Notes under the pieces: generated by a model | Databases searched by the model: none | What the model was told of the DNA's origin: nothing | Seen by the model: the letters and a program-made list of their open reading frames with translations, nothing else | Assembly (NCBI GenBank): GCA_010093605.1 | Contig: MU004184.1 | Coordinates: 444,801 to 508,800, forward strand | Direction of reading: 5' to 3' | DNA: 64,000 nucleotides | Origin: Lophium mytilinum | Lineage: Eukaryota | Made by a program: the position numbers and the translations under genes | Part shown: positions 3,516 to 30,600 of the stretch, in pieces | Position numbering within the stretch: the stretch's first letter is position 1 | How the letters are laid out: every line of letters begins with the position of its first letter

Positions 3516-3564
3516 AAGCTTCTTCTTTGAAGACCCAGACAAGCTGAGCAGATCAATGAAAAAG
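3516..3564 (-). terminator. Conserved hairpin downstream of U4 (candidate 3'-processing/termination signal)
   Basis: 45/49 identical to 17929-17977 (downstream of U2); folds on the minus strand with compensatory changes between copies. Confidence 0.65.
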
Positions 3565-3585
3565 GTTGAGGAAAGATCCTCGAGT

Positions 3586-3773
3586 TGGGGGTTCCAAAAA
3601 TTCCCTGCCGATCCGAAGACCAGCAGGAGCGGTCAGGTTGGGTAGTTTTCAACCAGCAAAAGACACGGGCTCGGACGACTCCTCACTGCCACGCGTAATG
3701 CCCTGTGATGATTGTTAGTGAGAAGCCAGGAGAGGAAAGGATGGGGGAGGGGAGACTTGCCTTGCACTAGGAT
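3586..3773 (-). ncRNA. U4: U4 spliceosomal snRNA containing one 58-nt GC-AG intron (exon 1 3773-3761, intron 3760-3703, exon 2 3702-~3586)
   Basis: Spliced read AUCCUAGUGCAAG|GGCAUUACGCGUGGCAGUGAGGAGUCGUCCGAGCCCGUGUCUUUUGCUGGUUGAAAACU... matches the fungal U4 layout: k-turn 5' stem-loop (CAGUGAGG...CCGAG), stem I UUUGCUGGUU, 3' hairpin with C(UUCG)G, Sm site AAUUUUUGG (3602-3594). Intron reads GCAAGT...CACTAAC...CACAG. Spliced length ~130 nt; ends approximate. Confidence 0.9.
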
Positions 3774-3806
3774 GAAGAACATAACTTGGTCCGGCGGCCG
3801 AGAAGG

Positions 3807-3865
3807 TTTTATAGCTGCCAGCCAGGCGCTAATCGAGTGATGACTCATCAGCGCTAGGCAGTTTA
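3807..3865 (-). promoter_or_regulatory. snRNA promoter: TATA box plus 29-bp upstream element with TGACTCA palindrome
   Basis: GTGATGACTCATCAGCGCTAGGCAGTTTA at 3837-3865 is identical to 18344-18372; minus-strand CTATAAAA near 3807-3814, ~35-40 nt upstream of the U4 5' end. Confidence 0.75.
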
Positions 3866-3884
3866 ACAGCAGGCAGTCTAATCG

Positions 3885-3993
3885 TGCCATGGTGCCTGGG
3901 GCCGTGCGGTCTTCAACGCACGGCCCCAGGCACCATGGCAGGGTACCTACACTACAGAGGGGTGGTGCCTGGGGCCGTGCGTTGGAGACCGCA
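3885..3993. repeat. Perfect 24-bp inverted repeat plus a third inverted copy
   Basis: 3885-3908 and 3917-3940 are exact reverse complements (8-nt loop); 3964-3993 is the reverse complement of 3905-3934 with one mismatch. Confidence 0.9.
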
Positions 3994-6900: not shown

Positions 6901-7214
6901 GAATGTTGGCAGCACCAATTTGCGCACGGTATAGGGAGAGCGAGTAATAGAAGCTATGAGAGCGACAATTCGTGAGGATTAGACAAGCCCTACTAACTGT
7001 CTCGTCCGTCTCCCCGATCATCCTCCCTGAATTTTTGCTGTCGCTCGCAGTCTGTCGTTTCCGTGGGCCTCCTCGGTCTTTCCTTTCCGCATTGATGAAA
7101 GCCTCAACGAAGCAGTTCACGTCTCCATCGGAATGCAGGAGACACTGCATAGGCCTTCTCCGTGTCAATCAATCGGAATCAAACTTGGTCTTGAAAAATG
7201 TAAAAGAGCTACAT

Positions 7215-8000
7215 TAATTAGCGCAATGTGATCAGAAGAGATGCATTTGTGGCTCACCTTCGGCGGGCAGCTCTTCAGCTTCCTCATAGGTGAGGAGTTG
7301 CGCAGCATCCTTGCAAGTGAGGACTTGCGCAGCTTCCTTGTAGGTGAAGATTTCCGAACCTTCTGGATCAGTGGCTCGAGGCCCCGTGAGGTAGCGTAAG
7401 ATATCTCTGCCAATCTGGTAGTCGGACCGGCTCTCATGCTCGGCTAGAGACGACCTTCAAAGCATTCCAGGAATCGAATGATGTGGATTGGTGAGGTCAG
7501 GTTGAAGAAGGCATAGCCGACGTCGCAGTCTGATTTGCAGTCCATGCGCAAATACATGAAGTCAATCAGTCCTCGACAGCCGGTATCCCATAGCAAACGG
7601 AGAAGTTGTTCCTGAGGAGTGTTAGTTGATGCTACACAAGCAAGGAAGAAGGTGCTTACATCAGTCATCTTGTTTGGGATATTGCGTAACATGATGGTAG
7701 TTGGCACCCGATTTGGAATCCATCCGAAGATACATGAAGTCAAGCAGTCCTCATCCCACAGCAACCGAAGAAGTTGTTCCTGAGATTGTTAGTCGATGCT
7801 ACACAAGCAAAGAAGAAGGCGCTTACATCAGTCACTTTGTTTGGAATATCCCGCAGCATGATGGTCTTTCGCACATCGGACCCATCCAGGATGTGAGCAT
7901 AGGAGACGGTGTTATCATGAGCATTCCAGGTGCGTCCGTTTCGGTAGAACGCAATGAATCGGACGAACGAATCCTTTGCATACGACTTAGTTGTCCGGCC
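7215..8000 (-). pseudogene. Mei2-like RRM (RRM_2) pseudogene with internal duplication and premature stop
   Basis: Motifs DVRKTIMLRDIPNK / TTIMLRNIPNK, IDFMYLRMD..DVGYAFFN and AEISYA...LIQKVRKSS; introns 7826-7780 and 7659-7612; in-frame TAG at 7446-7444; no clean start found. Boundaries approximate. Confidence 0.75.
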
Positions 8001-8504
8001 GGGTCGTGCGCGTAGTCATGGTTGGGGCTTGTTGGGTGGTGAAGTGGTGCGAGCAGCCCAACGAATTTAAGGTTGTAGGTGAGGAAGCGAGCTAGGCCTG
8101 CACGTGACCGCTGTCACTGAGCAGTCCCGCCCGTGACCCGCACGCTATTGCCTTTAATGTCTACTGAGTATGGCTCTAGTAGTCGCTGCATCTTCCTCCA
8201 TATGTTTCGATACACTGGATGATTTTAAGAAGATTAAAAGAATCAAATTCACGAAGTCACACTCCTTCAAGATTCACGCAGGTAGGCATCGAAGCCTACT
8301 TCAAGACTTTTAGAGCGAACATATGAAATATTCACCAGGACAGATGCTTCTAAGAACTAATCTTTACCACTCTCTCCTTCAAATTGTCTGGCCCCTTTAC
8401 CCTACGTGGCACGAACGCTTCTCATTTCAACTATATCTTCATTTTTCCTTTCTCAGCTATTATTGTCCGCACCATCCCGACAGCATCTCTAACATCCCGG
8501 CGAA

Positions 8505-9031
8505 ATGGCGTCCTGCCACGATCCATCGAGCTCCCATACCAGCCCCGATCGCCGCGCCCGCGCCATGTTGGCACCACGCCGGCAAACCCTGGGAGAGCTC
8601 GCTAAATCAATGAGCGTAGCCAAGACCATCCCTCTTCCACCCTTCGACGACGTAAGCCCCCAAAGCCCCTACTCTTGTCTAGCAATTGTTAATAGCACCA
8701 ATAGGCGGGCATCGTTGTCGCCCCACCGGTTCCCATCATCTCTACGGTTACCGTCAATGCGGCCTCTCCCACCGACCTCATCGCGCCCGTTGTTGCGCCG
8801 GCCGTGCGAACTCCGGCCATCACTCGGGAGGAGATCAACCTCGTAGCTGGTACGTTATGTTCCTCTCTTCTCTCTTTTGGGACGATAGCTGACTTGTGTG
8901 CTTTGTATGTAGCCCCTACCCTTGCCACGGTCTCGGCGCCGTCGCCTCGCCGTCGTGAGAGAGCTGGCTCATTGCGCCGCCTGCGTGACTGGTTGGCGCG
9001 GGTTTTCCGTGGGAAGAGTAGAGAGGAGTAA
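8505..9031 (+). CDS. Small hypothetical protein, 3 exons (introns ~8652-8704 and 8850-8912)
   Basis: GTAAGC...TAG and GTACGT...GCTGAC...TAG introns join an open frame of ~135 aa; no recognisable domain. Confidence 0.4.
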
Positions 9032-9256
9032 CACCGGGGGTGCTCTGCTGCGTGTTGTGTCTGTAGGCGTAATGTGAAAGAGACCGTGGGCGGCCTTGGG
9101 GTTTTAGGTAGTAATGAGAATGAATCCTGTCTTATCGAGCATTTGATCTGCTTCTGACTGTGAAGTCTGACTGCTTGTGGCTGGTGCGCTGGATTGGAAG
9201 GTAGATCTATACGCTTTGACAATGCTGGAGTTTCTTTGGGTGGACAGAAGTGTTTG

Positions 9257-9339
9257 GAGGAAGATACAATGCCTAACCAGGTTGAGGAAGATCCAATGCC
9301 TAACCAGGTTGAGGAAGATCCAATGCCTAACCAGGTTGA
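9257..9339. repeat. 27-bp tandem repeat x3
   Basis: GAGGAAGAT(A/C)CAATGCCTAACCAGGTT three times. Confidence 0.9.
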
Positions 9340-11019
9340 AAAACTATGGTTTGATTATTGGATTTCTTTCTCGATATATGCATTGGATCCTCCCATGTTG
9401 AAGCGATGAGTTTAGGCCCGTACTGGCAAGGCGCTAGCAGTATCTGAAACTCATTAATGTGCCAATTGTGATGAACCGAAACGTGTTTGTCCAATGCTGA
9501 TAGCTCTTACGGATGCCTCGTGACATACTGAATATGATTCAGCGACATATCCGGATGGTTGACGTATACTAGGGCTTCGAAGTCAGAGCTTAGAATGAAA
9601 TCTTTAAGACTCCTACAACTTCCCGCAATTGAAAGGGCGGGAATCTGCTTAATCAACATGAGTGCGAGGTTCTCGATTCCCGGGTAGATGTTCTTGGATT
9701 CTCGCTTCCATGTTTGAACCCACATAGGTTTGTACAGGACGGCCCTCAAGCCCAGTACATGAAGCGTGCCCAGAGAAAAGGGCAATTGCATGACTAAACA
9801 GTGGATGGAGAGTTGTTCCGGGAGCTGAATTGCCGAAAGTTCGATGTGTGTTGCCACCATAACGGGGACTACTTGGACCGTCGCAGCCTTGCTCGACTCT
9901 GCAGCCACGATGAACCACATCCAGCGGAAGCTGGGGGAGCATTTTGAGGAGCAGTCAAGTTCCCTGACCGTTCATAGCGGAATGGCCCCGCACTTCCATT
10001 GACAACAATACTCTTTCAGGTCATTGTCGATTGCTTGTCCGATTTCGATAGCGCTCTCTTTCATGCCTTTGGTCTGCCATTCTTCATCCCCCTCCTCCTT
10101 CAACATCAGCTTAGTCGTGTCCTCTTTATCGGTCGCGGCTCGGTAAAGACTTTGACGGTGTGATCTTATACTTAACCTTTGTCAGGTTCCAGAGAAACAT
10201 TGGGATTGTGAAGAGTCCGCTAGAGAACTGGGAACACCCACGACGACGGATCCCATTGCACTCAACCTCTTCATCTTCCCCATCCTCGTACGGATGTTTT
10301 CCGTTCCAAATCGTTCTCGCCACGTCAGAACGGTCGAAGCGGGGGGTGACAGAGACCGCAGAGAAAAGCATGCGGCGAAGAGGCAACCCAAAGTATCTTC
10401 CGAGAGGCTTCTATGTTTGAGCAGCATCAGCTGATCGAGGATGGAATCGGTTCGGTTGGGAGGAGAAGGAGAAGGGGGCGTGTTTTTCTGCGGTTTCTGG
10501 AGGAGGAACTTTCCAAGCGATCGGAAAGTAGACTTGCGAATTTTTGCTATGCATGCCTGTATTGTAGAGACGCGTCAGAGATGGAAAGGAGATGAGGAGG
10601 GGACATGAAACGGTGCTGATGACCTCTTGTTTATCCTGGAGCTCATGTTATCGAGATTTCGCACTCGGCTGGACTAGGAGGGAATCTTGCCGATGAGGAC
10701 GTTCTGCTGTCTCGGTCAAGACGCGTCGCCCCAATGCCGTACTCTGAAAACGCGTCGGCTCGGCCGGCTGGTGGATGCCCACTTGAGGCCAACCTGGATT
10801 GCTTCATCATGAGGCTGATGTTGTTTGTTCATTGTGTCCCACCCGGGCAGCAACACTGCAAGTCATGTCCCAAGGACTTGTCGCAGCTGCGCTGGGCCAG
10901 CACTTCCAGCATAGCGGCGTAGTATAATTGTAGGATAGCAGCGTCATATGGTCGCAGAATAGCAGCGCCTTCGTCGTATCCTAACAGCATGCCACTACAG
11001 CTGCATCTCAGAGAGATTT

Positions 11020-11066
11020 CTTCTTCTTCGACGACCCAGACAAGCTGAGTGGATCGATGAAAAAGG
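11020..11066 (-). terminator. Third copy of the snRNA downstream hairpin
   Basis: 42/47 identical to the U4 copy; substitutions largely keep pairing. Confidence 0.6.
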
Positions 11067-11067
11067 T

Positions 11068-11151
11068 GTGTGTCACCCGAGGTAGTGCAATATGGGCAAC
11101 GCAGTGTGGTTTTAACGATTGGGTGCCCGCTCACTAGGCATCACAGGTTAT
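11068..11151 (-). ncRNA. Candidate ~85-nt U2-related small RNA, or truncated U2 relic, retaining stem-loop IV
   Basis: CUGCGUUGCCCAUAUUGCACUACCUCGGGUGACAC aligns to SL IV of the U2 at 18 kb and still folds. It is followed by the third copy of the snRNA downstream hairpin (11020-11066), with TGACGTCA ~75 nt upstream. Confidence 0.4.
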
Positions 11152-12149
11152 GAAGGGGGAGAAATGGTTCGAGGCGTGGGCTGCTTGAGTATTTCAAGAG
11201 TTCTTCAGCGAGCCATGGCATTGGATGACGTCACCACAGCAACGCCAGGGCAGGTTCGTGTTCACTCAAAGGTGAACCAAGATGCGGCGCCAGGATGGAG
11301 GAGTTCCGGCCGAGTTATCGGTCATGGAAGCTCCTCAATGGGAGGTCATGTCCAGGCATTGATATACGGAAACATGAGCCTTTGAGCGGCAATTCAAGTA
11401 TTTAGATTACGAACAACTCTGTAGCATAGCTTCTTACTCTGGAACATCATCCTAGCGCATCGAAGTAGGTAACAATAGCTCTATCTGTAGAGACTTAGCT
11501 AAATGTCATCTCTCAGTTGGCGAAACGTGCGAAGCATAGCGGAGCCTAGATGAAAGAAAGGTTCGCAACCTCAATTTGAAGCACGAACCCTCAGCTTTCT
11601 TGAACGGATGCCCCAAGATGCAAATATATCACTTGCCAAGTCCTGGGACACAGTGAGGCGTTGGGAGAGTGATCAATCCACTATTGGCTTTGCACTAAGA
11701 ACTTGGAAAGAATGGCTCTTTTTCCCTGGAGACCTTATGATGAAAACTCCCAGTCCGGATCCCAACTCCTAGCTTGTTTGGATAAAACTTGAACAAGACG
11801 AGAAATATTCGAAATATATAGGAAACAACGCTCCCTTCCGTTTACTTCGAACCCCTAAATCTCTCTGTCTCCTACCTCTTCGAACATATATCCCTGAAAT
11901 GTACACACAGCGTAGCCATGTTGCCGCCTAGCATGACGCGGAGTGAGGATTGGATGGGAAAGATATTTTTCCCGCCATAATTGTTGCCCGGTGGGGATCC
12001 CGAAGCTTCGTTGGCGGGGCGTGCAGACAGTGCCTTGGATGCTGGGATTGAGGTCAGCCAGGGCCTGAGATGCTTTAGCGAAGGGGGTGCAGAGCTGTAT
12101 ACCGTCGTCTGGGTGACCCTTATGCGTTCATGGTTTGTTCCAATGTTGT

Positions 12150-13340
12150 TCGTGCGTGCTTTCCGAGGAGGTGTAGAGGCGCTTCAGGCGGTGTCCTGAA
12201 GTTGTCCACAAGTCGCTTGTGGGAACGGAATAATGGGTACTGGATTAGTACTTTGAGAAGAGGCTTAGGTGCTGTCGATATGGGGTATCGTCTGGAGCCT
12301 CCCGACGAGCTTTCAGACCAAGAAAAGTGAATGATAGAATCTTTTGCGAACATACCAGGGCACTCCAAACGGTGCCTTATAAGTTACAAGACTGAACGGA
12401 GCCCCTCTTTAGATCTACATGCCACCCAACATGTTGCCGATCACGAAAATCGTTACGCCATGTTTGGGGTAGCGGTGGTCGTAAAACGTCGTCTCGAATG
12501 CTTCGTATACATCATTGTTGCTTCAAAGCCGTTGATTATATTTCATTGTGAATGTGCCAATGACCTTCAAACGGTGGCATAAAAGTCCGCATAAGGTTCT
12601 ATTAGACTCTTCATACTAGGTGATAAGTTAGCAAGAGCGAGATAATCTAGAGCGGGATTGCTATAGTGTTAGTGAGCACCGTCTGAGTTGGCTCCGCGAG
12701 TTCACCTTTTCTCCAAAACGGACCATGCAGACATGTTGCCAATATTCCGAGGTGTCTCAGACGGTGCTATAAAAGTGTACACAAGCATCTTGTAGACCGT
12801 GAGATGTCCTCACTTCGGGAACTAGGATTGAATAGAGAGGTTGTCGGTGTAGAGCTGTAGAGCATTGTCTTCTGAAGCCTGTCACATTTAAGAATCTGTC
12901 AAAGCAAATGCTACGCGCTATTTGAGGACCAATAGGATCTCCTCAAACGGTGGCATTAAGTGTGCAGAAACGTCCCCTAGAACGTCAGTATTCGGTACTC
13001 GCGAGAGCGATCTGGTTTGGGAGCTGTTAGTGTAGAGCCATATACCATCGTCTGAAGCAGCCTGACGTATCTTCGGGTCTGGTCAAAGCGATTGCTACAC
13101 TATCTTTGAGAGCATATAGTGGCACCTCAGACGGTATCATAGAGGTGTGCGTGGGTCCTTCCTAGGCCCGAATATCTAATGCTCACGAGAGCCAGTCGTC
13201 TTACGACGCGTTAGTGTAGAGCAGTAGACCACTGTCTGAAGTAGCTCAACGCGCTTCCAGGTCGGTCAAAGCCACTGTTACATTTCTTCAAGAATTCATA
13301 GCGGCGCTTCAGACGGCGGCATAGATGTGTGCACAAGCTT
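12150..13340. repeat. Degenerate tandem array, ~185-bp period, ~7 units
   Basis: Core C(C/T)TCA(G/A)ACGG recurs at ~12182, 12363, 12565, 12756, 12941, 13126, 13307 with similar flanks. Confidence 0.7.
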
Positions 13341-13535
13341 GTGAGGAGAGACAGATCTTGATTCTTATAAAATTACAAAAGAAAACAGGCCGTATATCCA
13401 AGCCCGAAGCCAATTATGAGAGGAGGGAGGTGGGAATTGCGCCGTGCGCGTTGATGGTGCCGCTACATAGTTTAGATTAGCAAGAGCTGTCAGTTCCATT
13501 GGATTGTGCCTCATACATGATGCCGAAGTCAGCGC

Positions 13536-13703
13536 TTAGTCCTCGAAGTCCTCCTCGTCCTCCGACAGTGGTGGTATCATGGTGTAGGGGTGGCGAGCCC
13601 CCTCCGGCGCCGTGAGCGCCCGGTACAGCTGCTTCAGGATTGGAATCCCGGTGACGACGACGAAGATGATGAGGAGGATCATTGATGGGGTGTCGAGGGC
13701 CAT
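13536..13703 (-). CDS. Small single-TM protein (55 aa) with acidic tail
   Basis: MALDTPSMILLIIFVVVTGIPILKQLYR...EDEEDFED; GC3-rich codons; 9-bp AACCTACAA-type repeats immediately upstream. Confidence 0.5.
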   Translation of the reverse strand: MALDTPSMILLIIFVVVTGIPILKQLYRALTAPEGARHPYTMIPPLSEDEEDFED

Positions 13704-14548
13704 GACGCGTAGTGTGGTGTTGATTCGCGCGTTGTAGGTTTTGTAGGTTTTGTGGGCTTTGCAGGCTTTGTTTGATTTGTAGGTGTTGTAGGTTTTGTAG
13801 GCTTTGCTGGATGTCTTCGGTGGGGTGAGAGGGAAAGGTTTGTGGTTGCAGCGCACGGTCTGTTGAGGTGACGGAAGGTGAACACGTGATGGAGACACGA
13901 TAAGTTCCCCGGCGATGACAGGTATGCATGAAAGACCTCTTGAAAACTTGTGCGTGTTATTCTACCGCGGTCTGAAGCCCCTCGATATACTTTTGCGATT
14001 CTACAATAGCGGAAAGACGCCACTCTGCACACACAGGAAGCTTGCCAGGCCACCTCAGACACCATAATTTAGGTCTACCGAAATCAAAGATTGCCGTATC
14101 TACGTCAAAACCTTCATCTGAGTCTGCCCCTATTACCCAAGCTCATCTCTCCTTCAGCGTCATACATATCTTCGACTTCAACGCCAATCCCTTCTCTTCC
14201 GCCCGTAGGCTGCAACGAGGAAGACGTTCTACTCTCCTCAGATGTACAAGATTAGACTATCCCCAAAGCAAACTTTCCAACTTTTCAGAATCTTTTCGCT
14301 CAATCAAACTCTCTTTTGAGCAATTTTCTACTCTCTCAATTTGATAAGCTCTGACTATCCACAGAGCACCATCAAATGCCGCAAAACGATGACTATATGT
14401 TCACAATATCAACGCGTTCACATTCGAGAACATTCTTCGAAGCAGCAGAAACACCGTTCCCAATTTCAACTCCCCAGTTCAAGCTCCAGAGGGTCAACTA
14501 TCTTCATACCGTCTGAGCGTCCACAAGCTACTAACCAAACCCCCAAAT

Positions 14549-14885
14549 CTACTCCTCCTCCTCTCCCATCTCCACCCCCTCCAACCACTTCTCCACCTTC
14601 TCAATCACCGCCTGCTTCCAGGCCGGCAGCTCCAGCAGCGGCGCCGCCGCCAGCAGCGGCGCCACCGCATGCAACACGTCCAGCCTCTCATACCACGTCA
14701 GCTCCATTGCCTCTCTGCGGAGCGTGTCGGGGGTCGAGGGGGTCTTCCAGGCGGCCTCGTGGGCGGCAAGGGGGAGAGGTTCTACAGGAGGTTATCAGCG
14801 CCATTCTTTTACATGAAGGTTCGAGGGCGATTTTACGTTTAGTTTGCTTGCGTGCGAACAGATGGCGCAAGATTGGGAGCTTCAT
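14549..14885 (-). CDS. Small hypothetical protein (~93 aa), intron ~14836-14782
   Basis: Splicing GTAAAA...GCTGAT...TAG gives MKLPILRHLFARKQTKQPLPL...WKQAVIEKVEKWLEGVEMGEEEE; strong coding-like GC3 bias. Confidence 0.45.
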
Positions 14886-17800
14886 GATCGCGTTTTGGGA
14901 GGCGGGTGGTGGCGTTCAGGTGGCTTTGACGTTGGTTTGATGATGGAAGTTTGAAGCTGATGTAGCGCTAGTTTTGTTTCTTGAGGATGTTTAAGGACGG
15001 ACGCTGACCTGAAATTGGACGCGAAAGGTGTTTATGTAGTGGAAAGTGTTACGCTACGAGAGGTGAAGGTGGTAGGCGAGACGGGCGCAAAAGTGAAGCC
15101 AATGGCAGTTCTTCTTCTATTTTGCGGCAAGGGTGGGACGCGGTGAAGGTACGAAGGGCCTAGAAAGGACGAACAAAATGTTTTCAATTGTCTGCTATTG
15201 TCGAAAAACCTCGCAATACTATAGAGATCTAAATGACAGGAAACTTCGGCGTTTTGTACGCATTAGTCTGCCACTGCTGGGAGGACCATAAGTTGTTTTG
15301 AAGATAGAGAAAGTACGGTACTTAAGTATTTGTACCTAGCAGTAATTTTGCTTTATGGCCTCCTCTCTCTAGAAACTACATCTACAAGAACATGCCCGCT
15401 AACAAGCTCAAGTCTCCTGCTACTCTCGCTGAAGTGCGAGCGTCTTCGGACCTCGTGTAACTAGGCTTGAGACTCAGTAAATAAGCTCTCGGAGCCTAAG
15501 GTTGGAGCTGCTAGGTGACTGTCGTTGGTCGGCTTGCTATGGTGGTCGGTCACTTCGCGTGGACAGGCTCGAGGCGACCCGTAGGAGGTAGAAGGCTGTT
15601 ACGGCGGCTAGCTCATCCATCGTCTTGGGCTCACCACGGTCACCCAACGGAAATCTTGTCTCATTCATGAGACTTGTTATCCAGCTCGTGGTTTGAGAAT
15701 GCTCCTTCTGTCATCACTGGGTTGTTCGTGGGCCTAGCGGCTTATTTAGATTAGTGTTCGTGAAATAAATTTGCGGGACTTTGTGGACTTTGAGGATACT
15801 TGACAGAGCACATAGCAGGGGGTTTCTACCCGGCATAGCGTTTAGCAAGCTAGATGTTCTGAGATAACCGCTTGCTGTAGATACTTCGTTGTCTTCTGAC
15901 TGCCGTAGGTCTCAATTATTTCCTTCTGCTCCAAGAAAATGGGTAGCGTGTGCCTCTGAACAAATTAGCTAGGCGATGAGCAATTTCGGTGCCGTCGTTA
16001 ACTGGATAAGTTCGTCATACTCTTTCGTTTATAGGCAGCATAGGAGTTGACCGTGTCTCTTTTTAAATGCGATTTGACGTTCTCGGAAATGTACCACTTG
16101 AGCTACATCCGTATATACCCCGGATGTCTTTTTCCGTTGATTTCATCCAACATGGAATGCCGTCTTACTTTAGGCTCAAACGAGATCAACTCCCGTGGCC
16201 CCAGCAACGACATTCCAGACTTGCTAGGACGCGTGAGTGCGACCAATATGAAAGGACAGCTGCGGATGCTACGGCATTATTCCCTCTCCGACACCAATCT
16301 CAAGTACCGCAAGACTCCCATTTAATCTTGGGTAGCTTGCAGACCGCGCGATCTTTGTAAGAGCTTGGAGAAAGGAATATGAAGCCTTGACAGGAAGAAT
16401 GGTCTCCGCGGAATCTCTAACCATCATGCCATTTCGAAACATCTAATTCCTGTCTTCAAGCTGTTCGTGCACCTGGCGCCCTCAATTGCCAGACCCATGA
16501 GCGAGCACTCAACCCGCGAGGGCTGGGCGTGGTCCTTCTCCTGGTGTGGCTCCAAAGACTCCATTCCCTGCCCATTGATCAGTGGGTCTTCCACTTCTTC
16601 TGGGATATGCCTAAAGTCTACCTCCCACGTCTTCGGGCAACAGAAGTTCTCTCTTGTGTCCGCCGCATCGATCTTGGAACACCTTCTTGAGCCGGTATTA
16701 TGATGCGATGAGACGGGGTCGACGCTAGTGGCTACGAGACCAACGAGAGGTATCCAGGCAGGCCCGACTTGGGGTTTGACTCCGACGAGAGATAGCTTGT
16801 GTGAAGGAGCCGGATATGAAGGCACGGTTGGAGTTCTGGCGGGAAAGGCGTCTCTTGAAGATGGAGCGGTGGGGCATGCCGATTGCAGTATGGCGTCGTG
16901 CTTCGACACCGCAACAGAGTCCGCAAATATGAGTCCAAACGTTCCCGTTCTATAGATATGACCCGGGCAAGCGATATGCGGTGGTGGTCTACGAAACCTC
17001 GACGGTGAGGCCTAAGGACGTGGCAATAAAGTCCTGGGGCCGTCAGCTCACAAATTCCTCCTTTCGCTTCTCCCACAGTCGCCCTGGTCCACTAGATATT
17101 ATCGAGAAGCTCGATGGGGGTATCGAAAGTGTACAGGTATAATGGTACAGCTTCGGGACGTGGCGAAGGATTCGAAAGAGGTGTAAAATGACTTCGAGGC
17201 TAGGACGACGCGCTTCCTGAATTCGGCGAAAAGTCTCGATATGCGAAGCTGGGCAGCGAAAATTCATCGTGATCTTTCTGCGACACTCTGGATGCGCGCG
17301 AAGATGGAGAGGTGACGGTGCTTGTTGGCTTCTAGAGGGTCGATTGGATGGGAGGATTAGGCCAATGAGACCGACGCCAGTAACGACTTGAAGACTTTGG
17401 TATTCTGATTGAGAACAAACACAAAGAATGGAAGGCTCTTACCTAGCCGCTGGGATGGATGCGCTGAAGCTGCTGATGCCAAAGAAGCTCTGGTAGCGAC
17501 GGACACCACATTCCTCAACACGGTGCCCCACGTGTCCATGACGGAGAGACAGAGATCTATCAAGGTTGTCTGCGAGAAGACAATGTCTGTTTGCTCGTTG
17601 GGGTATTCGTCATTCTCGTAGGTGTTGTGAGACCTTTCAGGCGACAAGCAGCGAGGATGGCATGTGAGATGCTTCAACTCCAAGCAGTCTCTGGAAGACC
17701 GCTTCAGCCTCCTTCTCCCACTCCTACGCGAGACAGGACACTTGTTGAAAAACAATGCAAGCAAGAAGATGGATGAAGGGAATAGAGATGACGCGACATG

Positions 17801-17928
17801 CCCAGCCTGTGCAGTGCGGACGCGTTCAGGGTTCTCGCTCAGGACGTGACGCGTCACAGCAACATCACAACACCACAACATTCACATCACGAAAGCAAGA
17901 GGCACGTCGTAGGATCGCCAAGAGAGAA

Positions 17929-17977
17929 AAGCTTCTTCTTCGAAGACCCGGACAAGCCGAGCAGTTCAATGAAAAAG
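17929..17977 (-). terminator. Conserved hairpin downstream of U2
   Basis: Homologous to 3516-3564, with a compensatory A-U to G-C pair. Confidence 0.65.
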
Positions 17978-17991
17978 AGGTGAACAAAATG

Positions 17992-18286
17992 TTCGCGTCG
18001 GCCCGAGGCAGTGCAATACGAGCGACACAGTGCCCCTGAACATAGGCAAGCCCAGCGGCTCAGGGGACAGTTTCCAAAGATTGAGAAATCGAGGGGAGGC
18101 CCCGTAGGACCATTTCCAGCGATTAAACTGAAAAACACCTGTAAGATTGTTAGTGATGGAAGCAAACAGGATAGGAACAGGGAACTTACCAATACTACAC
18201 TTGATCTAAGCCAAAAGGCACTGTGAAGATTGTTAGTCATGATGTGGAAAGGATGGGGGTGGAGTTGGAACTTACAAGAGAGCTGA
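17992..18286 (-). ncRNA. U2: U2 spliceosomal snRNA containing two GT-AG introns (18275-18221, 55 nt; 18189-18139, 51 nt)
   Basis: Spliced read AGCUCUCUU|UGCCUUUUGGCUUAGAUCAAGUGUAGUAUUG|GUGUUUUUCAGUUUAAUCGCUGGAAA... shows SL I, branch-recognition GUAGUA, SL IIa, IIb with UACG loop, IIc complement CGAUU, Sm-like AAUCUUUGG, SL III and SL IV loop GUAUUGCACU. ~190 nt spliced; ends approximate. Confidence 0.92.
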
Positions 18287-18310
18287 GGTCCACGAACTGT
18301 CGGCGGCGGA

Positions 18311-18372
18311 GTATTTATTGCTGGCGAACGACGCTAGCTTGGCGTGATGACTCATCAGCGCTAGGCAGTTTA
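18311..18372 (-). promoter_or_regulatory. snRNA promoter: TATA-like box plus 29-bp upstream element
   Basis: 18344-18372 identical to 3837-3865; minus-strand AATAAATA ~30 nt upstream of the U2 5' end. Confidence 0.75.
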
Positions 18373-19428
18373 CTCCGGGCCGTATAATGGCGACGGGGGG
18401 CCTACTGTGCTGCTGGCCAGTGACGGTGGATTGTTAGCCTCGTTACTGTGGCTCCGCTGTGGCTGGGATCCAACGGCGAGGGAGATCTGGTGCTCCGTAG
18501 CACTACGGGGAGCGCCTATGGTCAGTAATCCCGTGCAGCAGAGACTTCGCAAAGGCTTTGCACTGCCCCAATTGACTTTGTGGAAGATTGATTTGAACTG
18601 GAGGCCATTGGCACAGCGCCAACTGGGGGCTGGTCCCAATTCACCTCCGGCAGTGATCATCTACGGAAGTAGAGGCCTTACTATGGCTAGATGGCGAGCC
18701 GCAGGACACTCTGCCCACCTTTCAGACATTCTATGTGAAGTATGGTGTTGTTGTGAAGCTCATAGGATCTTTTGTGTCTTCCTGCACTGTCGCGTGCCCG
18801 AGGCCCCTTACCCACCAATCGCAATCGCAACTCACAGCCGTTTAAACTACAGAAAAAGACCATATCTCTAGTCGCAATGATGTGGTCATCAGCAGTATAC
18901 AGAACACAATAAACTCATATCTCGTAACCCTTTCGCTTGACAGAGCTCTGCCTTCAGTCTAATCGTTGCCTTCCCCTCATCTGGCGACGCATTCACACTC
19001 TGCTACTTTCTCTCTACCAAAGCCGGCTCTACCTCATCGTTTTTCGAGTCATCCATATATCAACCTATTCTCAACCACAGATCCCTCCTCGCCTTCTTGA
19101 TCCCCAAACGCGCGGCGCGGAACCCACTAGCCTATCTCGAAGCCACGGGTGCTAGAAACAGACGAGTATCAAAACAGAGGACAAAGACGCATTATTTACG
19201 TCCCCAGCAGCCAAAATGAGATCGACATCTGTCTTTGTGCTGTCTAGCCCTCCCAATCCCCGCGGAAACCAAGCAGAATATGGCGGAGCAAGATCATACC
19301 AAGCAATCGCAAGCACAACAAAAAGATAAGGAAATACAGCCGCTTCAGATTCCATCCCATCTCGACGCGGACGCCCATCTCCAGACCCCCAACCACCAAC
19401 CTCCAACACACCAGCTTCCATCTCACCT

Positions 19429-20028
19429 TCACACCCCTTCCAGCGGCGGATACACCTCCACATCCCCCGGCTCGACCCAATCCTCCGAAAACTCATACGT
19501 CTCAAAACACGTCGCCGCACTCCCCTCGGTATCGAAAAACCGAAACCGACACACCCCCCTCTCCCCCCTCCAATCCCCACTCATCACGCACGCAAACCCG
19601 CGCCGCTCAAACTCCGCCACCCGCTCCTCCACCGTCCTCTCCCTCCCCTCGGCACAGTCAAAGGCAACATGATGCACCCCCTCGCCCTTCGCGGCTACGA
19701 ACTCGGCCATCAGCGACGGGCCGGATACCGGCTCCATGATCTCCCAGGTCAGGGAGCCTTGGGTCGCGAAACACACGCGCAGGGCGAAGGGGGCTGGGGC
19801 GCCGTGGATGGTTTGGTTTGAGACGGAGGCGGGGGTGAAGTTGAAGACGCGGAAGGGGCCGATGCCGAGAGCGAGTAGGCCGTCCATGGTGCGGGTGGCG
19901 GAGGGGGTGACGATGCAGATCTCGATGAGGTTGCCGAGGAAGGGGGCTGCGAGGGGGGTGGGGGTGTGGGTTAGGGGATGTGGGTTGCTGTCGGGAGTCC
20001 CCTCGGGGTGAGGTCGGTGTTGCGACAT
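19429..20028 (-). CDS. VOC/glyoxalase family protein (methylmalonyl-CoA epimerase-like)
   Basis: Intronless 199-aa ORF with LGIGPF, WEIMEPVSGPS, GEGVHHVAF and FFDTE motifs. Confidence 0.85.
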   Translation of the reverse strand: MSQHRPHPEGTPDSNPHPLTHTPTPLAAPFLGNLIEICIVTPSATRTMDGLLALGIGPFRVFNFTPASVSNQTIHGAPAPFALRVCFATQGSLTWEIMEPVSGPSLMAEFVAAKGEGVHHVAFDCAEGRERTVEERVAEFERRGFACVMSGDWRGERGVCRFRFFDTEGSAATCFETYEFSEDWVEPGDVEVYPPLEGV

Positions 20029-20589
20029 GATGGAGTCTTGAGGGGTGGTCCGGATGTAGAGTACGACGGAGAAATAAGAAGTTGTTGGCGGCTTGGGACG
20101 AAGAGCGAGATTAAGTAGATGGGATGGGACCGTATGACGACGCGGAGTTTAGCGGCCGGCTTGGTAATGCGGGCTATGACGACGAGGTAATTGGAAAGCT
20201 GTATGTTGGAAATCTCGGATCGAGGTTTTTGAAAGAAAGTAGGATGTGAAAATTAGAGCTTGGAAGGCTGAGAGGAAGCGAATGAGGGCATCTGGGGATT
20301 GGGAGGTCATATCACGTGATCGATGTCAAGGTAAGTCTATTCGAATCAGAAGATGACTAATCTCTCGATGTTTTGATTGCAGTCAGTTTCTTACTTCTAT
20401 CTGAAAATATCCTTGTGCTGAAACCATGTATGTGCGTGCCTGTCTTCCACGTACAATATGCTCCCCTCATACACTGTCCGCAAGTCACGTTACTATCCTC
20501 TACATCGCGTATATAAACACACTCATTTGCCCCAATACCAACGTATGTCTAATCTACTATATCCTATGAACTCCTAACTATCCCATTCG

Positions 20590-22290
20590 ATGCAATGGGA
20601 ATCAGGCTGCTTTTTGACCCGCTACACACCCGCTGGCCGAGCTACTCTTCACATCGGTATCAAGCGATTAAGATCTGAAACTAGAGAATCCTATATCCGA
20701 GGGTGGGTTACCTTGAATTTCGTCCTGGTTGATCCCCGACACACAAGTTTAGGCACTTTTTACAACCGCTTAGGGTCCCTTAACTTGCTTTTGAATTTTA
20801 GAAATAATGTCAAGGCTAACGTAGTAAATGTTAGGCTGCGATTCACCCAGCTGCACACCTACTAGCTAAACCACCCTTCACGCCGGTATCAATTAATCAA
20901 GATTAGAAGCCGGTGCATCTTTTTCCGAGTCCTAAAACTGGCGTCCTCGTACACTCTTGAGACACACCTTTGGACACTCCTTACAATTGCTCGAGGTGCC
21001 TTAGTTGGCTTGTAAACTTCTAGATACGATCTAAAAGCTGACGTAGTAATATCAGACTGCTCTTCAACCAGCCGCACACCTACTAGCTAAACCACCCTTC
21101 AAGCTGGAAGTCTACGGAGATGTGTTCCATACTCTTGGGCTCCCCATGGAAGGTTTCGAATAGTTAAGCGCGATGTCAAGTTCTCGACGACGTAGACCAG
21201 ACTACTCTTTTCCTAAATACCTTCCAACTAGCTAGGCCACTCCTCTCGGTGTTATCCAGCAAGCAAGATTAAAACCGAAGGCGAATAGTAATAAAATAGG
21301 CTCGTGTGTCTAGTCTACGCACCTCCCTATTACACTCCTTAGGGTGCCCCCACAAGATTTAGAGCATCCCGGCGCGAAGTATAGTTCTAGATAGTAAAAA
21401 TTAGAGTACTCTTTTCCTCACTACCTCCCAACTAGCTAAGCAACACCTCGTGGTAGTGTTAATCGGGCAAGAATAAAAGTAAATATAAGTAAGTCTATAT
21501 ACTTAGATATATGCACCCCCCTTTTATACTCTCTAAGGTGCCCCCACATCATTCAAGACATCTAGGCGTAGTATTAAGTCCCAGGCCGCGAAAATTAGAC
21601 TCCTCTTTTTCTAAATACATTCTACCTAGCTAAGCTCCACTTTATAGTAGCGTTAGGGAGGCAAAAATGAAACTAAATAGTAGCAATTCCGTAAGTCTAG
21701 TCGCTATACCTCCCTTTTCTCATTCCCCGGGGGTCCCCACAAACTTCACATAACTAGGCACGATGTCAAGACCCACGGCATACATGTTAGACTACCCTTT
21801 TCCGCACTACCGCCTCTTTTATTAAGCTCCTCCAGCCATTGGCGTCAAGACAGTAAGATAGACGTTAAATAGTAGTAATTCCGTATATCTAATTCTATGC
21901 ACCCCCAATTCCAACTCTCCAGCGTACTTCTATACAGTTTAAAATATCCAGGCACCATGTTAAGTGCTAGACAGCTTAAACCAGACTACCCTTTTCCTTT
22001 CTACCTATAAAGTAGCTAAGTTACTCCTACTAGCGGTATTAAGTGCGCAAATTAAACGCCGAACAGTAGTAATCCGGTATGTTTATTCCACGCAACCCTA
22101 TTCCCTACTCCCCGGGGCCCCCCTACAAGGTCTGCCGCATCTAGGCACGACGTTAAACCCCACGGCTTACATATTAGACTACTCTTTAACCACCTGCCTA
22201 TTGACTGTCTGGGCCACTCCCTACTGCGGCATCAAGTGCGCAAGATCGAAACCAAACAGTGCCAAACTTGGACGTCTAGACACATAGCCT
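20590..22290. repeat. Degenerate tandem array, ~194-bp period (longer ~220-bp units at the left end)
   Basis: (T/C)(T/C)AGACTAC(T/C)CTTTT at ~21199, 21401, 21595, 21787, 21981, 22174; CACACCTACTAGCTAAACCACCCTTCA exact at ~20855 and ~21076; TpA-rich. Confidence 0.75.
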
Positions 22291-22653
22291 AGTACTGTCA
22301 TTTATTCCCACAAGCGCTCTACAGCACGCGCTGGTTGCTTATGTTACTATTGTCTACAAACTTGAATAAGAGGTTTGTGTACTAATGGTACCATTTTGGA
22401 CACAAGTAGGGGGTTTATGTACTAATGGCACCATTTTAAATGTAAGGGGCCAATGCGGGGTGGTTACATTAAGCAATACATGACAATGTAAAGGGCAAGT
22501 GTGAACATTTTCAGCAAAAGCAGAGAGGTCACGTCAGGAAATGCAAGAAGTAAGAGAGAATTGTGGATTAAAAGGCCGTTTCGTGCCGAAAAGGTGGAAG
22601 AAAACCCCTCCCCCTGACCACCCCCCAAGTCACCCACCCGCCCTCGCCTCCGC

Positions 22654-24754
22654 CTAATCCACACCCAACAAGTCCCCATTCTTCTCACTAAGAGAACCAC
22701 CAGACGCCCCATTCAGCGCCACCATCTCCTCATACTCCACCGCAATCCCCACACTCCGGTGATGTCCCGCCCCCAGCGCCTCCACATGGCTCTCCTTCGC
22801 CCTCAGAAACGCCTTCTCCGCCTCCTCATTCCGCTCCAAGTCCCGCAGAATGTACGCCTGCTGCTTGATACTCGCCACCATCGCCTGGTGCACATCCCGC
22901 TTATACATCTTCTTCCGCGCCTCCAGCGCAAACGAATTGTGCTTCAACGCCTCCTCGTTCTTGCCCTGCAGGTTCAGCGCCGTCGCGAGGCGATAGAGGC
23001 TGAGTAGGTTCCACGCATGGCTTGCGCCGAGCGTCGCCGTGAAGATCCTCGAGACTTCGCGCTGCACCTGCTCGGCCTCGGCGTACTTCCCGTGTGCCTG
23101 GTAGACGCGGCCGAGGTCTGATTTGGCGACCAGCGTCTCCGGATGCTCGGCGCCGAGGGTGCAGACCTTGGCTTCCACGACACGGAGCTGCAGCGCTTCG
23201 GCGGTGGGGTAGTTGCCGCGCGCGATGTGGTTGACGGCGAGGTTGCGGAGGCAGTTGAGGGTGCGGGCGTGGCTGGCGCCGACGGTGGCGTCGGAGTCGA
23301 CGCGGGCGCGCTCGAAGACGGCGTGGGCTTCGTCGTAGCGGGATTGCTGGTACAGCGACTCGCCTAGGCTGGTGAGTAGGGCGGGGAGGGCGTGGCGCTC
23401 GTCGCTGTTTACGTTGACGCTGTCTACGGCTTCGCGGAGAGTACGTTCGGCTTCGGCGAGCTTGCCGTCGGTTGGGTTGCGGTGGGCGTTTAGGACGTGG
23501 CCGTAGCGGGATTGGGTCCAGAGGGTTGAGCTGCGGTGCGGTGGGAAGAGTCGGGCGTTGATTTCTTTGGCTTCGGAGACGGCGCGCTCGGCGAGCTCGA
23601 GGAGACCGACTTCGGTGCATTCGGAGGCGAACTCGTTGAGAACGCCGACTCGCGTGAGAAGGTATTCACGATCTTCGCCCTCATCGCAGGTGCTGTAGAG
23701 AGCTTCCGGGACGGGATGATCAAGGATGATGGCGTGCACATGTGGAGTCAAGGCCGGGAAGTTGTCCAAGAGGCTAGCCCTATTGCTGTGGAAGACGTAG
23801 TGCAGTACTTCTACAGCCCGTCGGTGCCAATACTTCTTCTCGGAGCAAGCGTCAATCCAGACTGTGGCCGACAGTTGGACAATCCTATTCATGGAATACC
23901 TGTCGCCGCTGGCATCTTCGGTGATGAAACCATATTCAAGGAGCATATCGAGACTATCACCAGAGCTTCTCAGTTCATTGTTGGTGGCAGTCGCGCTGTT
24001 TCGATGCCCGGATCGTAAAAACCGGAGAGGGTTTGCACTCTTCGTCGGCTTTGGTGTCTGGACCTGGACAGGGACCGGCGTCGGCTCCTTCTCTAGGACA
24101 CTCTTGAATAGAACCTTCGGGATAGACTTGTTGTTGAAGACGCTCATAAAGCAGAGGAGACGGATCGCGGCCGGATTCAGCCGCGACACCTGGATGAACG
24201 AGATCTGCAGCAGAGATACGATGGCTTTGACGATTGAGCTCTGACAGGCCTTTTGGTCAGACTCGAGGTCGATGAGCATTTCGTCATCCCGGAGGTTCCT
24301 AAGGAAAGAGGCGAGGATCGGATCAGGCTGAGCTGGTCCGTCAGGCTGAGTCTCCGCAAGTTGAGCTGTTGGCAGAGGCAGATGCTCAAAGATGGCGACT
24401 AGTTCGTTCGCTTCGTCCTCTGGGAAGTCGAATTGAAGCCTCTTCTTGAGCCAGCGGATCTCTTCGGCCTGAGACAGCTCGGACGTGTCGTTGTCTGCTG
24501 GGTTCCGTCCAGGGCGGGAACATAACTTCGAGAGTGTTAGCGAAGCTCTGTCCACATTACAATGTAAAGGCTCCTACCTTGTCTTTGAAATCTCGCATCA
24601 AGTTTGAGATGGCACGATTCAAGGCCTGTTTGCTCTCGCGGCGTCGTGAAGCCAACTCGTCTGGACCCATCATGACCCCATGCATCGCAGGCGCCGGAAC
24701 CTCATGTTGAGACGAGGATGAAGATGAAGAACCGAAACACAGACGGCTGAGCAT
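22654..24754 (-). CDS. TPR (kinesin-light-chain-like) protein with NLR winged-helix region but no P-loop; intron 24577-24526; ~682 aa
   Basis: SF..V....AA.RLL.FMS.F....IP and YSMNRIVQL motifs, then LGAEHPETL-type TPRs; no Walker A in the frame. Confidence 0.85.
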
Positions 24755-27687: not shown

Positions 27688-30600
27688 ATGGCAGATCCGC
27701 TCTCCATCGCAGCCAGCGTTCTCGCTGTTGTAGGTGCAGCCGGCAAGGTTCTGGCAGGCCTACATTACATCGCGGAGCAACGACAAGGTCCCCAGATTTT
27801 CAAGGACCTTTACTCTCGGGTATGAAACCAACCGACTTAGCTACGCAACGACACTAATATCGTTACCAAGGTCCGCGATATCGACAGGATCCTCACCACC
27901 ATTCAAGAGCCTCTCAAGCAAGCCCGAGACGAACCAGCGACCCGAACCGCCCTTGTCGAATTGCAGCGCAACATAGACCAAGTCGCAGGCATCCTGAAAG
28001 ACATCGATACCTTAATCTCTAAAGTCCAGAGCGGCGATGGAACGAGCGAGCCAAGCATATCTACCCGAAAATGGATGCTGAAGCAAACCACGTTCAAGAC
28101 GAGGATGGAGTCTCTCCGAAACGCGGAAATCAAACTCCAAACCTCCTTGTCGTCAGCTATGTTCTCGCAAATGTGAGTGATGACCGCCGCGAAAGGATGC
28201 AACCAGTTCATGCTAACAACACGCCCTTAGTTTCTCCGGGACAGCAACGCAACCAATCGTTCCCACCGTCCGATCTCCTGTCTGGACTGTGCCCTATCGA
28301 CAAGACCCCGATTTCATCGATCGACCCGATATTCTGTCCAAATTAGAGCAGCTCTTGGCCAACCCAGCGTCGAGAGCAGCTTTGGTGGGCTTTGGAGGTG
28401 TCGGAAAATCGCAACTGGCGATAGAATACGCATTTCGAGTGCAAGAAAAGTCGCCGCACACATCTGTATTCTGGGTGTATACCGCCACCGCTGAGAGATT
28501 CGAGGGCGCCTACCGGGAGATCGCCGATAAGTTAGACATCAAGGGACGCCATCAGGCCGGTACAGATATCAAGAGGCTTGTATCCATAGCATTGAGCGAC
28601 GATTCCTATGGCGAGTGGCTTATGGTTGTCGACAATGCGGATGACCTCACCTTGTTCGACAGAACAGATCCTTCCTCCGAGTCGCTAGCGGATTACATCC
28701 CCCAGAGTAGGCATGGACGCGTGTTAGTAACATCTCGGAACAAAGCCGCTGCAACTTCAATCGTGGGAAGACACCAAGATGTTATCAATGTTGATGAGAT
28801 GAGTCAAGATGAAGCGATGTCTCTTCTGAAAACAAAGCTAGCCATCACATTCGACGAAGACGACGCTTCAGAGCTTCTGACAGCCCTTGGTAACGTGCCG
28901 TTAGCTCTCTCTCACGCCGCAGGCTACATCAACGAACACACCCCTCACGTAAATATTCTGGAATATTTACGGATGTTCAAGGAAAGCGATGGTGGCGATT
29001 TGGGTCTGCTCGAAGGCGAGCGTAATGACAACCGAAGGGACAGGCATTCGTCCAACGCAATTGCCACGACACTACAGATGTCATTCCGACACGTCGAGAA
29101 AGCGTCTCCACTGGCCGCTGACATATTACGCTTGATGTGTTACTTCGATCGTCAGTACATACCGACCGAGCTGATCCTCGATCCTTTCATTTCTGGCCAT
29201 GACGATAATAACAACGATGATACCGCTGGCCAGGCACTGAAAGAAGGTACTGAAAGACTCCGAGAATGCAGCCCAAGTAGAATGTCAGGACCTAGGCGGA
29301 CTTTGAACCAAAGATGGCACAGCTTTGGTACCAAGCTCAAGAAACGGCGCGAAAAGCCTCGCATCAGCATCGCCAGAGCCCATGCTATCGGTACACCAAA
29401 CAAAACCTTAAACCCTACTTCCCAACAGACCTTCCAGGCCAGCGAAGTATACACTGGACTTTCGACTTTAGTCAGCTATTCACTCATTTCTCTCACTACA
29501 GACGGAGTAGCGTACAGTATGCACCGTCTCGTCCAACTAGCAGGACGGAAATGGTCAATGTCTCAGCCGGCAACTACGCTGTGGCCTCTCAAGGCAGGTG
29601 TATCTATCTCAAATGCGTTTCAACACGCTTATTTCGATATTGATTTCCCAAGAATTCGAACCATCCTTCCTCATACCCAAATGGTATTGCAAGATAGTCT
29701 CACGGTGCTAGGTCCCAAGCCAGCCCGCAATCAAGAGCGGAATGCCCAGAAGTATTGGAAAGTTCGCGCTCAAGTCTTATGTGGACTTACAGATTATCAC
29801 CTTTATCATAACCCAAACCGAGTTTCGGAGTCCGAAATCCGCGAATCCAATGAAATATTCAATACTATATACGGGTCTCACCACGTAGACACTCTATGGG
29901 CTCGGCATACCCTCGGAACCGCGATCGCCCGAGAAAATCCTCATTTGGCCTTGGAAACGTTTCGAGAGCTTTTGGAAACACTTCAGAAATACAAGATTGA
30001 TGACAAAGCGCTGGAAGCAGCGGTTTACAATTGCATCGGGAACTTCTTGTCCAAAACAGGCGAATTTGAAGAAGCTAAGCAAAGTTACCAGAAGGCGATC
30101 GACCGAGGGGCTAAGGAGTACAGTGACCAATTTCTGGCCGCGCGTAATTTTGCATTGTGTGATAGGGACCTTGGTAATTTCACCGAGGCGGAACATCGTC
30201 TTAAAAGCGTCATTGCGGAGCTAGAAACTACCTTTCCAGAGTCGATGTATGACTTGTTGTCATGTAAATCTGCTCTAGTGGGCGTTCTCGTGCAGCAAGG
30301 AGAGTATGCCCTCGCCGAGCAGCTAGGTCGCCCAACGCTTGAGAGTATGGAGAGCATTGTGGGACCTGACCATCCAGGAACCTTCCTGCTGAAGTACCAA
30401 CTTGGAATCTGCCTTTTTAAGCTACGCCGGTACGAAGAAGCTTTTGCCCTTAGTCAGCAATGTCTTCTAGCACGGGAGCTTTTGTATGGGCCTGTTGCCA
30501 AACGTACTTTGATGACAATTAGGTGGCAAGGAAGAATCTCCGAAGCGATGTGGAACTACGCAGATGCCGAACAAGCGTATCTTCGGGTAGCTGAGGGCTA

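Follow-up and report, generated by a model that had tools for sequence, protein, structure and literature searches.

The stretch of DNA analysed here, 64,000 nt of Lophium mytilinum contig MU004184.1 (the window), carries on its minus strand a gene for U2 small nuclear RNA (snRNA), which appears to be divided into three exons by two short spliceosomal introns. Searched as unspliced DNA, the region matched the Rfam U2 family (RF00004) at 17986-18232 on the minus strand with 66.0 bits (gathering score 46, E 8.6e-11), and a laxer Rfam scan of 17900-18400 showed no competing family above 16.2 bits. The match spans model positions 1-192 and contains a 63-nt insertion where the model expects 12 nt, which corresponds to intron 2; as an intron-free model thus displays both of them, the U2 gene and its second intron are evident at the locus. 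The features, as predicted from the analyses described below, are the following.

18276..18284, minus strand: U2 exon 1, 9 nt, AGCTCTCTT; the minus-strand read ...CAGCTCTCTT ends at 18276
18221..18275, minus strand: U2 intron 1, 55 nt, GTAAGTTCC...GACTAACAATCTTCACAG, with GTAAGT, an ACTAAC branch box, CAG and a C-rich box CCACCCCCATCC
18190..18220, minus strand: U2 exon 2, 31 nt, TGCCTTTTGGCTTAGATCAAGTGTAGTATTG, with stem I, the helix I region and GUAGUA
18139..18189, minus strand: U2 intron 2, 51 nt, GTAAGTTCC...CACTAACAATCTTACAG, with GTAAGT, ACTAAC and CAG, 3 nt past GUAGUA
17986..18138, minus strand: U2 exon 3, about 153 nt, with stems IIa and IIb, the IIc complement, an Sm-like site AAUCUUUGG and stems III and IV; 3' end approximate

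Exon 1 is presumably the U2/U6 helix II region, and exon 2, which reads UGCCUUUUGGCUUAGAUCAAGUGUAGUAUUG, has stem I and the helix I region ahead of GUAGUA, by which the branch site is recognised. In both introns the signals are of the host type (GTAAGT, ACTAAC and CAG), and 10-11 nt separate the branch box from the 3' end. The window was aligned with our own splice-aware aligner, in which the query was the first 80 nt of an uninterrupted U2 locus (L025) and GT..AG jumps of 35-220 nt were allowed, and introns of 55 and 51 nt were found after U2 positions 9 and 40. These are the boundaries that an initial annotation, made from the letters alone, had proposed, with introns at 18275-18221 and 18189-18139 around a 31-nt exon, and the sequence also bears out its placement of intron 2 at 3 nt after GUAGUA. 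The start of the gene has to be moved: judged from homology, the mature RNA begins with the A at 18284 and not at 18286, so that exon 1 is 9 nt long. At the other end, homology runs to about 17986. Exon 1 and exon 2 when joined give the 5' end AGCUCUCUUUGCC, in which the 13-nt consensus AGCTCTCTTTGCC is reproduced exactly as it stands in uninterrupted relatives of class A, defined below.

The fit of the gene to U2 was scored with an nhmmer profile from 26 uninterrupted loci, against which different forms of the window gene, built by coordinates, were compared. The unspliced form scored 113.6 bits; removal of intron 1 alone raised this to 125.4 bits and removal of intron 2 alone to 130.4 bits, in the latter case with an alignment that begins at profile position 10, and removal of both gave 142.3 bits over profile positions 1-193, end-to-end, to which intron 1 contributes 11.9 and intron 2 16.9 bits when it is taken out as well. 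The fit thus becomes better with each intron removed, and colinearity with the profile from base 1 is reached by the doubly spliced form alone. A form in which exon 2 is skipped, without stem I and GUAGUA, fell to 87.5 bits, in agreement with the argument of the initial annotation that such a U2 would lose its branch-pairing region; nothing points to its being made, and skipping is only a possibility here.

Relatives were collected by scanning a metagenome collection with 28 nt of exon 2, which returned at least 116 U2 loci with 114 distinct matches. Identity over these 28 nt across the at least 116 loci is given by the construction of the search pattern, and since the pattern needs positions 11-38 uninterrupted, introns inside that stretch lie outside the sample. 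A locus was called complete when it had at least 100 nt upstream and 140 nt downstream, and an intron was counted when it was no longer than 130 nt, contained a branch-like box and lay in the first 80 nt. Alignment jumps in five loci (L048, L063, L065, L068 and L092) had no branch-like box and were dropped as spurious. By their 5' ends, the matches listed fall into three groups.

Class A, spliced 5' end at most two mismatches from AGCTCTCTTT: 59 distinct, 51 complete, 22 with an intron
Class B, 5' end ...CCACTCTG: 45 distinct, 32 complete, none with an intron
Other, neither A nor B: 10 distinct, 7 complete, none with an intron

In one large group of loci, (Y)AGCTCTCTTT stands immediately 5' of GCCTTTTGGC, and the join of exon 1 to exon 2 (TGCC...) in the window gives this same 13-nt start. 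The near-cap introns of class A lie at U2 positions 5 (one locus), 6 (four), 7 (three), 9 (one), 10 (one) and 11 (six), and the inner ones at positions 40 (one), 41 (one), 51 (three), 54 (one) and 63 (one); some of these loci are closely related (L063-L065 share one contig), and the numbers are hence counts of loci, not of independent events. Both positions of the window gene recur, position 9 in L030 and position 40 in L102, with L078 one nucleotide off the latter. Two introns in one gene were found in a single listed class-A locus, L114 (positions 11 and 51). With this 5' end, introns are thus frequent near the cap (positions 5-11) and directly after the branch-site box or within stem IIa, and the arrangement is less exceptional than the initial annotation had assumed, as 22 of the 51 complete class-A loci among the matches listed have such introns. 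L063, L064 and L065 are three tandem U2 genes, each with an intron at position 11, and on each of the contigs of L033 and L057 a truncated 5' piece of U2 faces a full U2 gene.

A second snRNA gene lies in the window, 14.5 kb from U2: U4 (RF00015) is matched at 3578-3712 on the minus strand with 80.4 bits (cut-off 46). Its proposed start, for which the grounds are given further below, is the A at 3773. The two genes have upstream sequences in common.

18344..18372, minus strand: U2 upstream element, the 29-mer TAAACTGCCTAGCGCTGATGAGTCATCAC, first base 88 nt before the proposed start
3837..3865, minus strand: U4 upstream element, the same 29-mer, first base 92 nt before the proposed U4 start
18312..18318, minus strand: U2 TATA-like box, ATAAATA, at -34 from the proposed start, in alignment with the TATAAAA of U4

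The two 29-mers match at 29 of 29 positions (alignment A1). TATAAAA lies 40 nt 5' of the proposed U4 start, and the uninterrupted metagenome U2 loci have a TATA about 40 nt before AGCTC. The 29-mer is a putative promoter element and contains the palindrome ATGAGTCAT, which we take to be an AP-1/Gcn4-type site. In run X1, a sequencing run that was matched by species label and has a word share of 0.00 for 17960-18330, a high-depth contig matches 18345-18376; the contigs of this run on 3000-22999 comprise five pieces, none of them on the U2 gene. A very high-depth X1 contig holds the 29-mer in two orientations about 40 nt apart, which would fit a promoter element common to several small-RNA genes. 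At 3885-3993, 5' of the U4 promoter element, there are nested inverted repeats with arms of 24 nt (100%) and 31 nt (97% complementarity), together with a 19-nt exact direct repeat.

The promoter spacing bears on where U2 begins. Only intron 2 might be real, with transcription starting near 18232 inside what is here called intron 1 and the upstream AGCTCTCTT being a chance match or a relic. In the Rfam alignment, model positions 1-16 fall with high posterior probability on CAAUCUUCACAGUGCC, with which intron 1 ends, so that the 5' end of its match occupies the last 12 nt of that intron (CAAUCUUCACAG, followed by UGCC), and the form with intron 2 alone removed still has its 130.4 bits against the profile. 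That form, however, loses profile positions 1-9. In loci with an evident 5' intron, the Rfam match likewise begins a few bases before GCC, inside the intron, and the placement is therefore an artefact of an intron-free model. Joining exon 1 across a perfect GTAAGT...ACTAAC...CAG restores the 13-nt consensus exactly, and the same consensus is split at six different points in relatives. The 29-mer and the TATA-like box are spaced for a start at 18284, as they are in U4, while from the alternative starts suggested by Rfam the 29-mer would stand about 140 nt (U2) and 153 nt (U4) away. We consider a start inside intron 1 very improbable, and keep to a U2 gene with both introns.

The initial annotation had also warned that standard annotation could miss this gene. 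This does not hold for detection, as the Rfam match is above threshold, and all 20 intron-bearing loci given to Rfam were over the U2 cut-off as well (81.8-151.3 bits). It holds for the gene model, in which the 5' end is misplaced into intron 1 and intron 2 is hidden as an insertion. Covariance-model annotation finds such genes, yet gives a wrong 5' end and an over-long gene.

The predicted joined RNA retains the stems of U2. Local folds gave stem I, a branch-site hairpin AUCAA/UUGGU, stem IIa (8 pairs), stem IIb GGUCC/GGGCC and stems III and IV. RNAalifold predicted 34 pairs from a 25-sequence alignment of exon 3 with uninterrupted relatives, 23 of the 34 compensatory, and the row of the window gene fits them. 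The stem IIc complement is AAUCG/CGAUU, in which the terminal G and C co-occur in the window, L077 and L092, with U together with A or U in most other loci. The folding of all downstream structures stated in the initial annotation was accordingly reproduced, with the local folds and the alignment in agreement.

Several observations weigh against a split, working U2 gene at this locus. The support for it is wholly comparative and structural, the splicing being inferred from it, and it covers the U2 gene within the 64-kb window. The closest listed locus, L020, has 77% identity and over exon 3 only, so that the gene has no near relative among the loci collected. Its Rfam score is the lowest of the 21 U2 genes scored (66 vs 81.8-151.3 bits). 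The Sm-like site AAUCUUUGG, between stems IIb and III, differs from the usual AUUUUUG, with a similar AUCUUUG in L092, and stem IIa has one extra G. Past GUAGUAU, in the minus-strand stretches 18190-18192 and 18138-18145, eight bases read UGGUGUUU, where 115 of 117 readable metagenome matches listed have CUGUUCUU and the other two differ from it by one base.

Alternatively, the locus could be an additional U2 copy, variant or in decay, that is silent or of minor use, with the working U2 coming from another gene. The low score, the UGGUGUUU unique to the window, which is the main argument here, and the atypical Sm-like site all favour this, and two U2 loci are reported for the ascomycete Aspergillus fumigatus (PMC2377427). 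All stems are nevertheless kept, several of them through changes on both sides relative to the relatives, and the IIc complement co-varies, G with C. The changed bases still permit the AUCAA/UUGGU hairpin, which resembles the branch-site stem-loop. The promoter 29-mer is identical to that of U4, and both introns keep perfect signals. The changed bases of UGGUGUUU flank intron 2, with a G on each side of the junction (UUG/GUAAGU and CAG/GUG), so that the changes beside this intron look like an adjustment to splicing rather than decay. A decaying or minor copy is therefore judged unlikely. Four independent lines support the split U2 gene, namely the Rfam match, the profile scores, the restored 5' consensus and the relatives with the same intron positions. 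Considering these together, we regard the locus, with a probability of roughly 85%, as an ascomycete U2 snRNA gene of three exons (9, 31 and about 153 nt) and two short spliceosomal introns.

The U4 gene probably carries an intron of its own. The features proposed from the window sequence are given below.

3761..3773, minus strand: proposed U4 exon 1, ATCCTAGTGCAAG, starting with the A at 3773
3703..3760, minus strand: proposed U4 intron, 58 nt, GC-AG, GCAAGT...CACTAACAATCATCACAG, after nucleotide 13
3578..3702, minus strand: U4 body (exon 2), from the Rfam match, the first 10 nt of which are read as the 3' end of the intron

The sequence 5' of the Rfam match reads ATCCTAGTGCAAG / GCAAGTCTCCCCTCCCCCATCCTTTCCTCTCCTGGCTTCTCACTAACAATCATCACAG / GGCATTACG. 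When the proposed intron is removed, the joined 5' end AUCCUAGUGCAAGGGCAUUACG aligns with the Rfam consensus AUCuUUGcGCAgGGGcAaUacc with no gap and with 9 of the first 13 positions identical, while the 5' placement made by Rfam itself needs a 3-nt deletion. The gapless joined 5' end, the spacing of the 29-mer and TATA, which is like that of U2, and the strong GCAAGT together suggest that U4 has a 58-nt GC-AG intron and that the 5' end set by Rfam falls inside it. A U4 pattern gave no matches in the genome-contig and viral-contig collections.

The proposed U4 intron resembles U2 intron 1. An exact 14-mer, CCCCCATCCTTTCC, is present in both, these are its sole two exact copies in the window, and no further copies were found in the 64 kb at up to two mismatches; the two introns also have the common end ACTAACAATC.TCACAG. 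Pairwise intron scores were tested against 5000 shuffles that kept splice signals and composition.

U2 intron 1 and U4 intron: score 27.5, reached by 0 of 5000 shuffles, z 5.2
U2 intron 2 and U4 intron: score 21.5, 6 of 5000 shuffles
U2 intron 1 and U2 intron 2: score 21.0, 9 of 5000 shuffles
U2 intron 2 and an ordinary protein-gene intron (7780-7826): score 17.5, 73% identity, 95 of 5000 shuffles

The three snRNA introns might be alike through a strong short-intron consensus of this fungus and not through copying, which we consider possible but doubtful. An ordinary intron comes close, as the 17.5 of intron 7780-7826 against U2 intron 2 is near the 21.0 between the two U2 introns, and ACTAACAATCT also ends this ordinary intron. 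The 14-mer, however, is exact and lies outside any splice signal, the pair that contains it scores 27.5 with no shuffle reaching this value, and U2 intron 1 scores just 11.5 against ordinary introns. From these sequences, we hold U2 intron 1 and the U4 intron to be related by descent, as their likeness suggests. That the two U2 introns are recent copies of each other is reduced to a possibility by the score that an ordinary intron reaches with intron 2, and the membership of U2 intron 2 in the family of U2 intron 1 and the U4 intron is possible. Other members of this family were not found in the 64-kb window.

The 5' introns of the relatives also have a feature in common. Among the matches listed (L004-L114), a run of at least four C in the first 32 nt occurs in 13 of 16 distinct 5' introns vs 1 of 8 inner introns (Fisher 0.002, with loci that are not phylogenetically independent), and this C-rich box is often CCACCCCCA. 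The median start of the longest C run is +25 (range +16 to +27) although the intron position varies from 5 to 11, and the 14-mer in the window starts at +26 (U2) and +27 (U4) from the proposed starts. The mean similarity score of 5' introns at different positions is 8.0 (111 pairs) vs 4.8 for pairs of a 5' and an inner intron (151 pairs). Of 27 uninterrupted loci, 15 show a C run no more than 60 nt 5' of the start, and in some of them a similar box lies between TATA and start, for instance CCCACCCCCATCC in L003. The C-rich box might thus once have belonged to the promoter, but no duplication model was found that accounts for the 3' splice positions observed. The C-rich box may reflect either one old 5' intron whose ends slid or a function kept near the cap. 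More tentatively, the cap-proximal snRNA introns of ascomycetes may form a related class that was spread between snRNA genes by reverse splicing and has a selected C-rich box about 25 nt from the start, a suggestion that we regard as doubtful at present. U2 intron 1 and the U4 intron, possibly along with U2 intron 2, would then be copies of one another, as would follow if an intron released from one snRNA precursor was inserted into another snRNA within the spliceosome. The C-rich box would either help the use of a 5' splice site that lies 5-13 nt behind the cap or be a promoter element downstream of the start.

A plausible course for the making of this U2 can be proposed. Transcription would begin at the A at 18284, driven by the 29-nt upstream element and the TATA-like box, which are present in the sequence and would have this role. 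Spliceosomes that already hold mature U2 would excise both introns, as their consensus GTAAGT, ACTAAC and CAG suggests. The predicted product is a joined RNA of about 193 nt that begins as U2 normally does and contains GUAGUA, the Sm-like site and stems I, IIa, IIb, III and IV, features that are seen in the sequence, the profile alignment and the structure. The claim of the initial annotation that this U2 must be spliced by U2-containing spliceosomes follows from the gene structure, and as its precursor would be processed in this way, new U2 would depend on existing U2, in parallel with U6 in fission yeast. The introns most likely arose in one of two ways, by reverse splicing into the snRNA followed by a DNA copy, as in the Tani-Ohshima / Brow-Guthrie model, or by descent from an old 5' intron that slid.

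If these readings are correct, U2 would be a further small RNA, besides U6 and U3, whose genes are often interrupted in fungi. Its introns would have one clear hot spot no more than 11 nt from the cap and another directly after the branch-site box. Sequence-related introns in two snRNA genes of one genome would be direct material for testing the movement of introns between RNAs that meet in the spliceosome. What is new in this study is the double interruption of U2, the cluster of near-cap introns, usually with a C-rich box, and the probable GC-AG intron of U4 that shares a 14-mer with U2 intron 1.

The neighbouring genes of the window encode NB-ARC/TPR proteins, ABC transporters, a glyoxalase-fold protein and an M16 peptidase, for which the nearest protein cluster is mostly from Ascomycota. 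Two genes of the NB-ARC/TPR (NLR-like) kind, which filamentous fungi typically have, are located at 22654-24555 and 28289-31021, downstream of U2. The protein cluster and these genes are in keeping with an ascomycete U2. No tRNA genes were found in the window. A Mei2-like gene (7560-7900, minus strand) shows a tandem duplication of an exon-plus-intron module, with introns at 7780-7826 and 7612-7659 that are about 90% alike (score 37).

Introns in the genes of spliceosomal RNAs were an early argument for backward splicing and for the spread of introns by reverse splicing. To our knowledge, few cases of snRNA introns have been catalogued beyond U6 and U3. One review of the subject lists spliceosomal introns for U6, in Schizosaccharomyces pombe and many fungi, for U2 (Takahashi 1993) and for U1 and U5 (Takahashi 1996); it states that they were taken as hints of reverse splicing, with expression validation often missing, and cites the U2 intron of Rhodotorula hasegawae in support of reverse splicing into RNAs near the active site (PMC5855946). 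Section 9 of a second paper only cites the Rhodotorula work (PMC2396436). For U2 and U4 of A. fumigatus, which "could only be partially aligned", loci of 276-277 nt (U2) and 505 nt (U4) are given, and the sizes on northern blots were unlike the predicted ones (PMC2377427). Overlooked introns may explain these odd Aspergillus sizes. A full-text literature search, with most subscription journals outside its coverage, found no two-intron U2 gene, no U4 intron and no survey of U2 introns.

Takahashi and co-workers reportedly located, in 1993, the U2 intron of R. hasegawae just downstream of the branch-site recognition sequence. That case is likewise a spliceosomal intron in a U2 gene, at a position that would be like that of intron 2 here, but R. 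hasegawae is a basidiomycete with one intron in U2, whereas the ascomycete-type U2 of the window would have two, one of them 9 nt from the cap. Families of sequence-related introns within one Dothideomycete genome, the introner-like elements, are said to have been described by van der Burgt and colleagues in 2012. Introner-like elements are many near-identical copies in many protein genes; here, three copies that would be related lie within 64 kb, all in snRNA genes. In the sole U6 gene of S. pombe and in the many fungal U6 genes with introns (Tani and Ohshima, 1989, 1991; Canzler et al., 2016), the precursor of a spliceosome RNA is itself spliced, as proposed here, and the fungal U6 introns show no conservation apart from their canonical signals and have been acquired on several occasions (PMC5855946). 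U6, however, is a Pol III transcript with introns beside the catalytic triad, while the present case concerns a capped, Pol II-type snRNA gene with a cap-proximal intron. The introns of fungal U3 small nucleolar RNA (Myslinski et al., 1990; Canzler et al., 2017, PMC5832005) are likewise short and spliceosomal and lie close to the start of a small, structured RNA that is capped and has a TATA-type promoter; U3 is a different RNA, to which the 22 of 51 U2 loci among the matches listed would add U2. The U1 and U5 introns of R. hasegawae (Takahashi et al., 1996) extend the phenomenon beyond U2 and U6, among them to U1, which leaves before catalysis (PMC5855946); the intron proposed for U4 here would be a parallel case. 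Unlike these U1 and U5 cases, the U4 intron of the window would be of the GC-AG type and related in sequence to an intron of U2.

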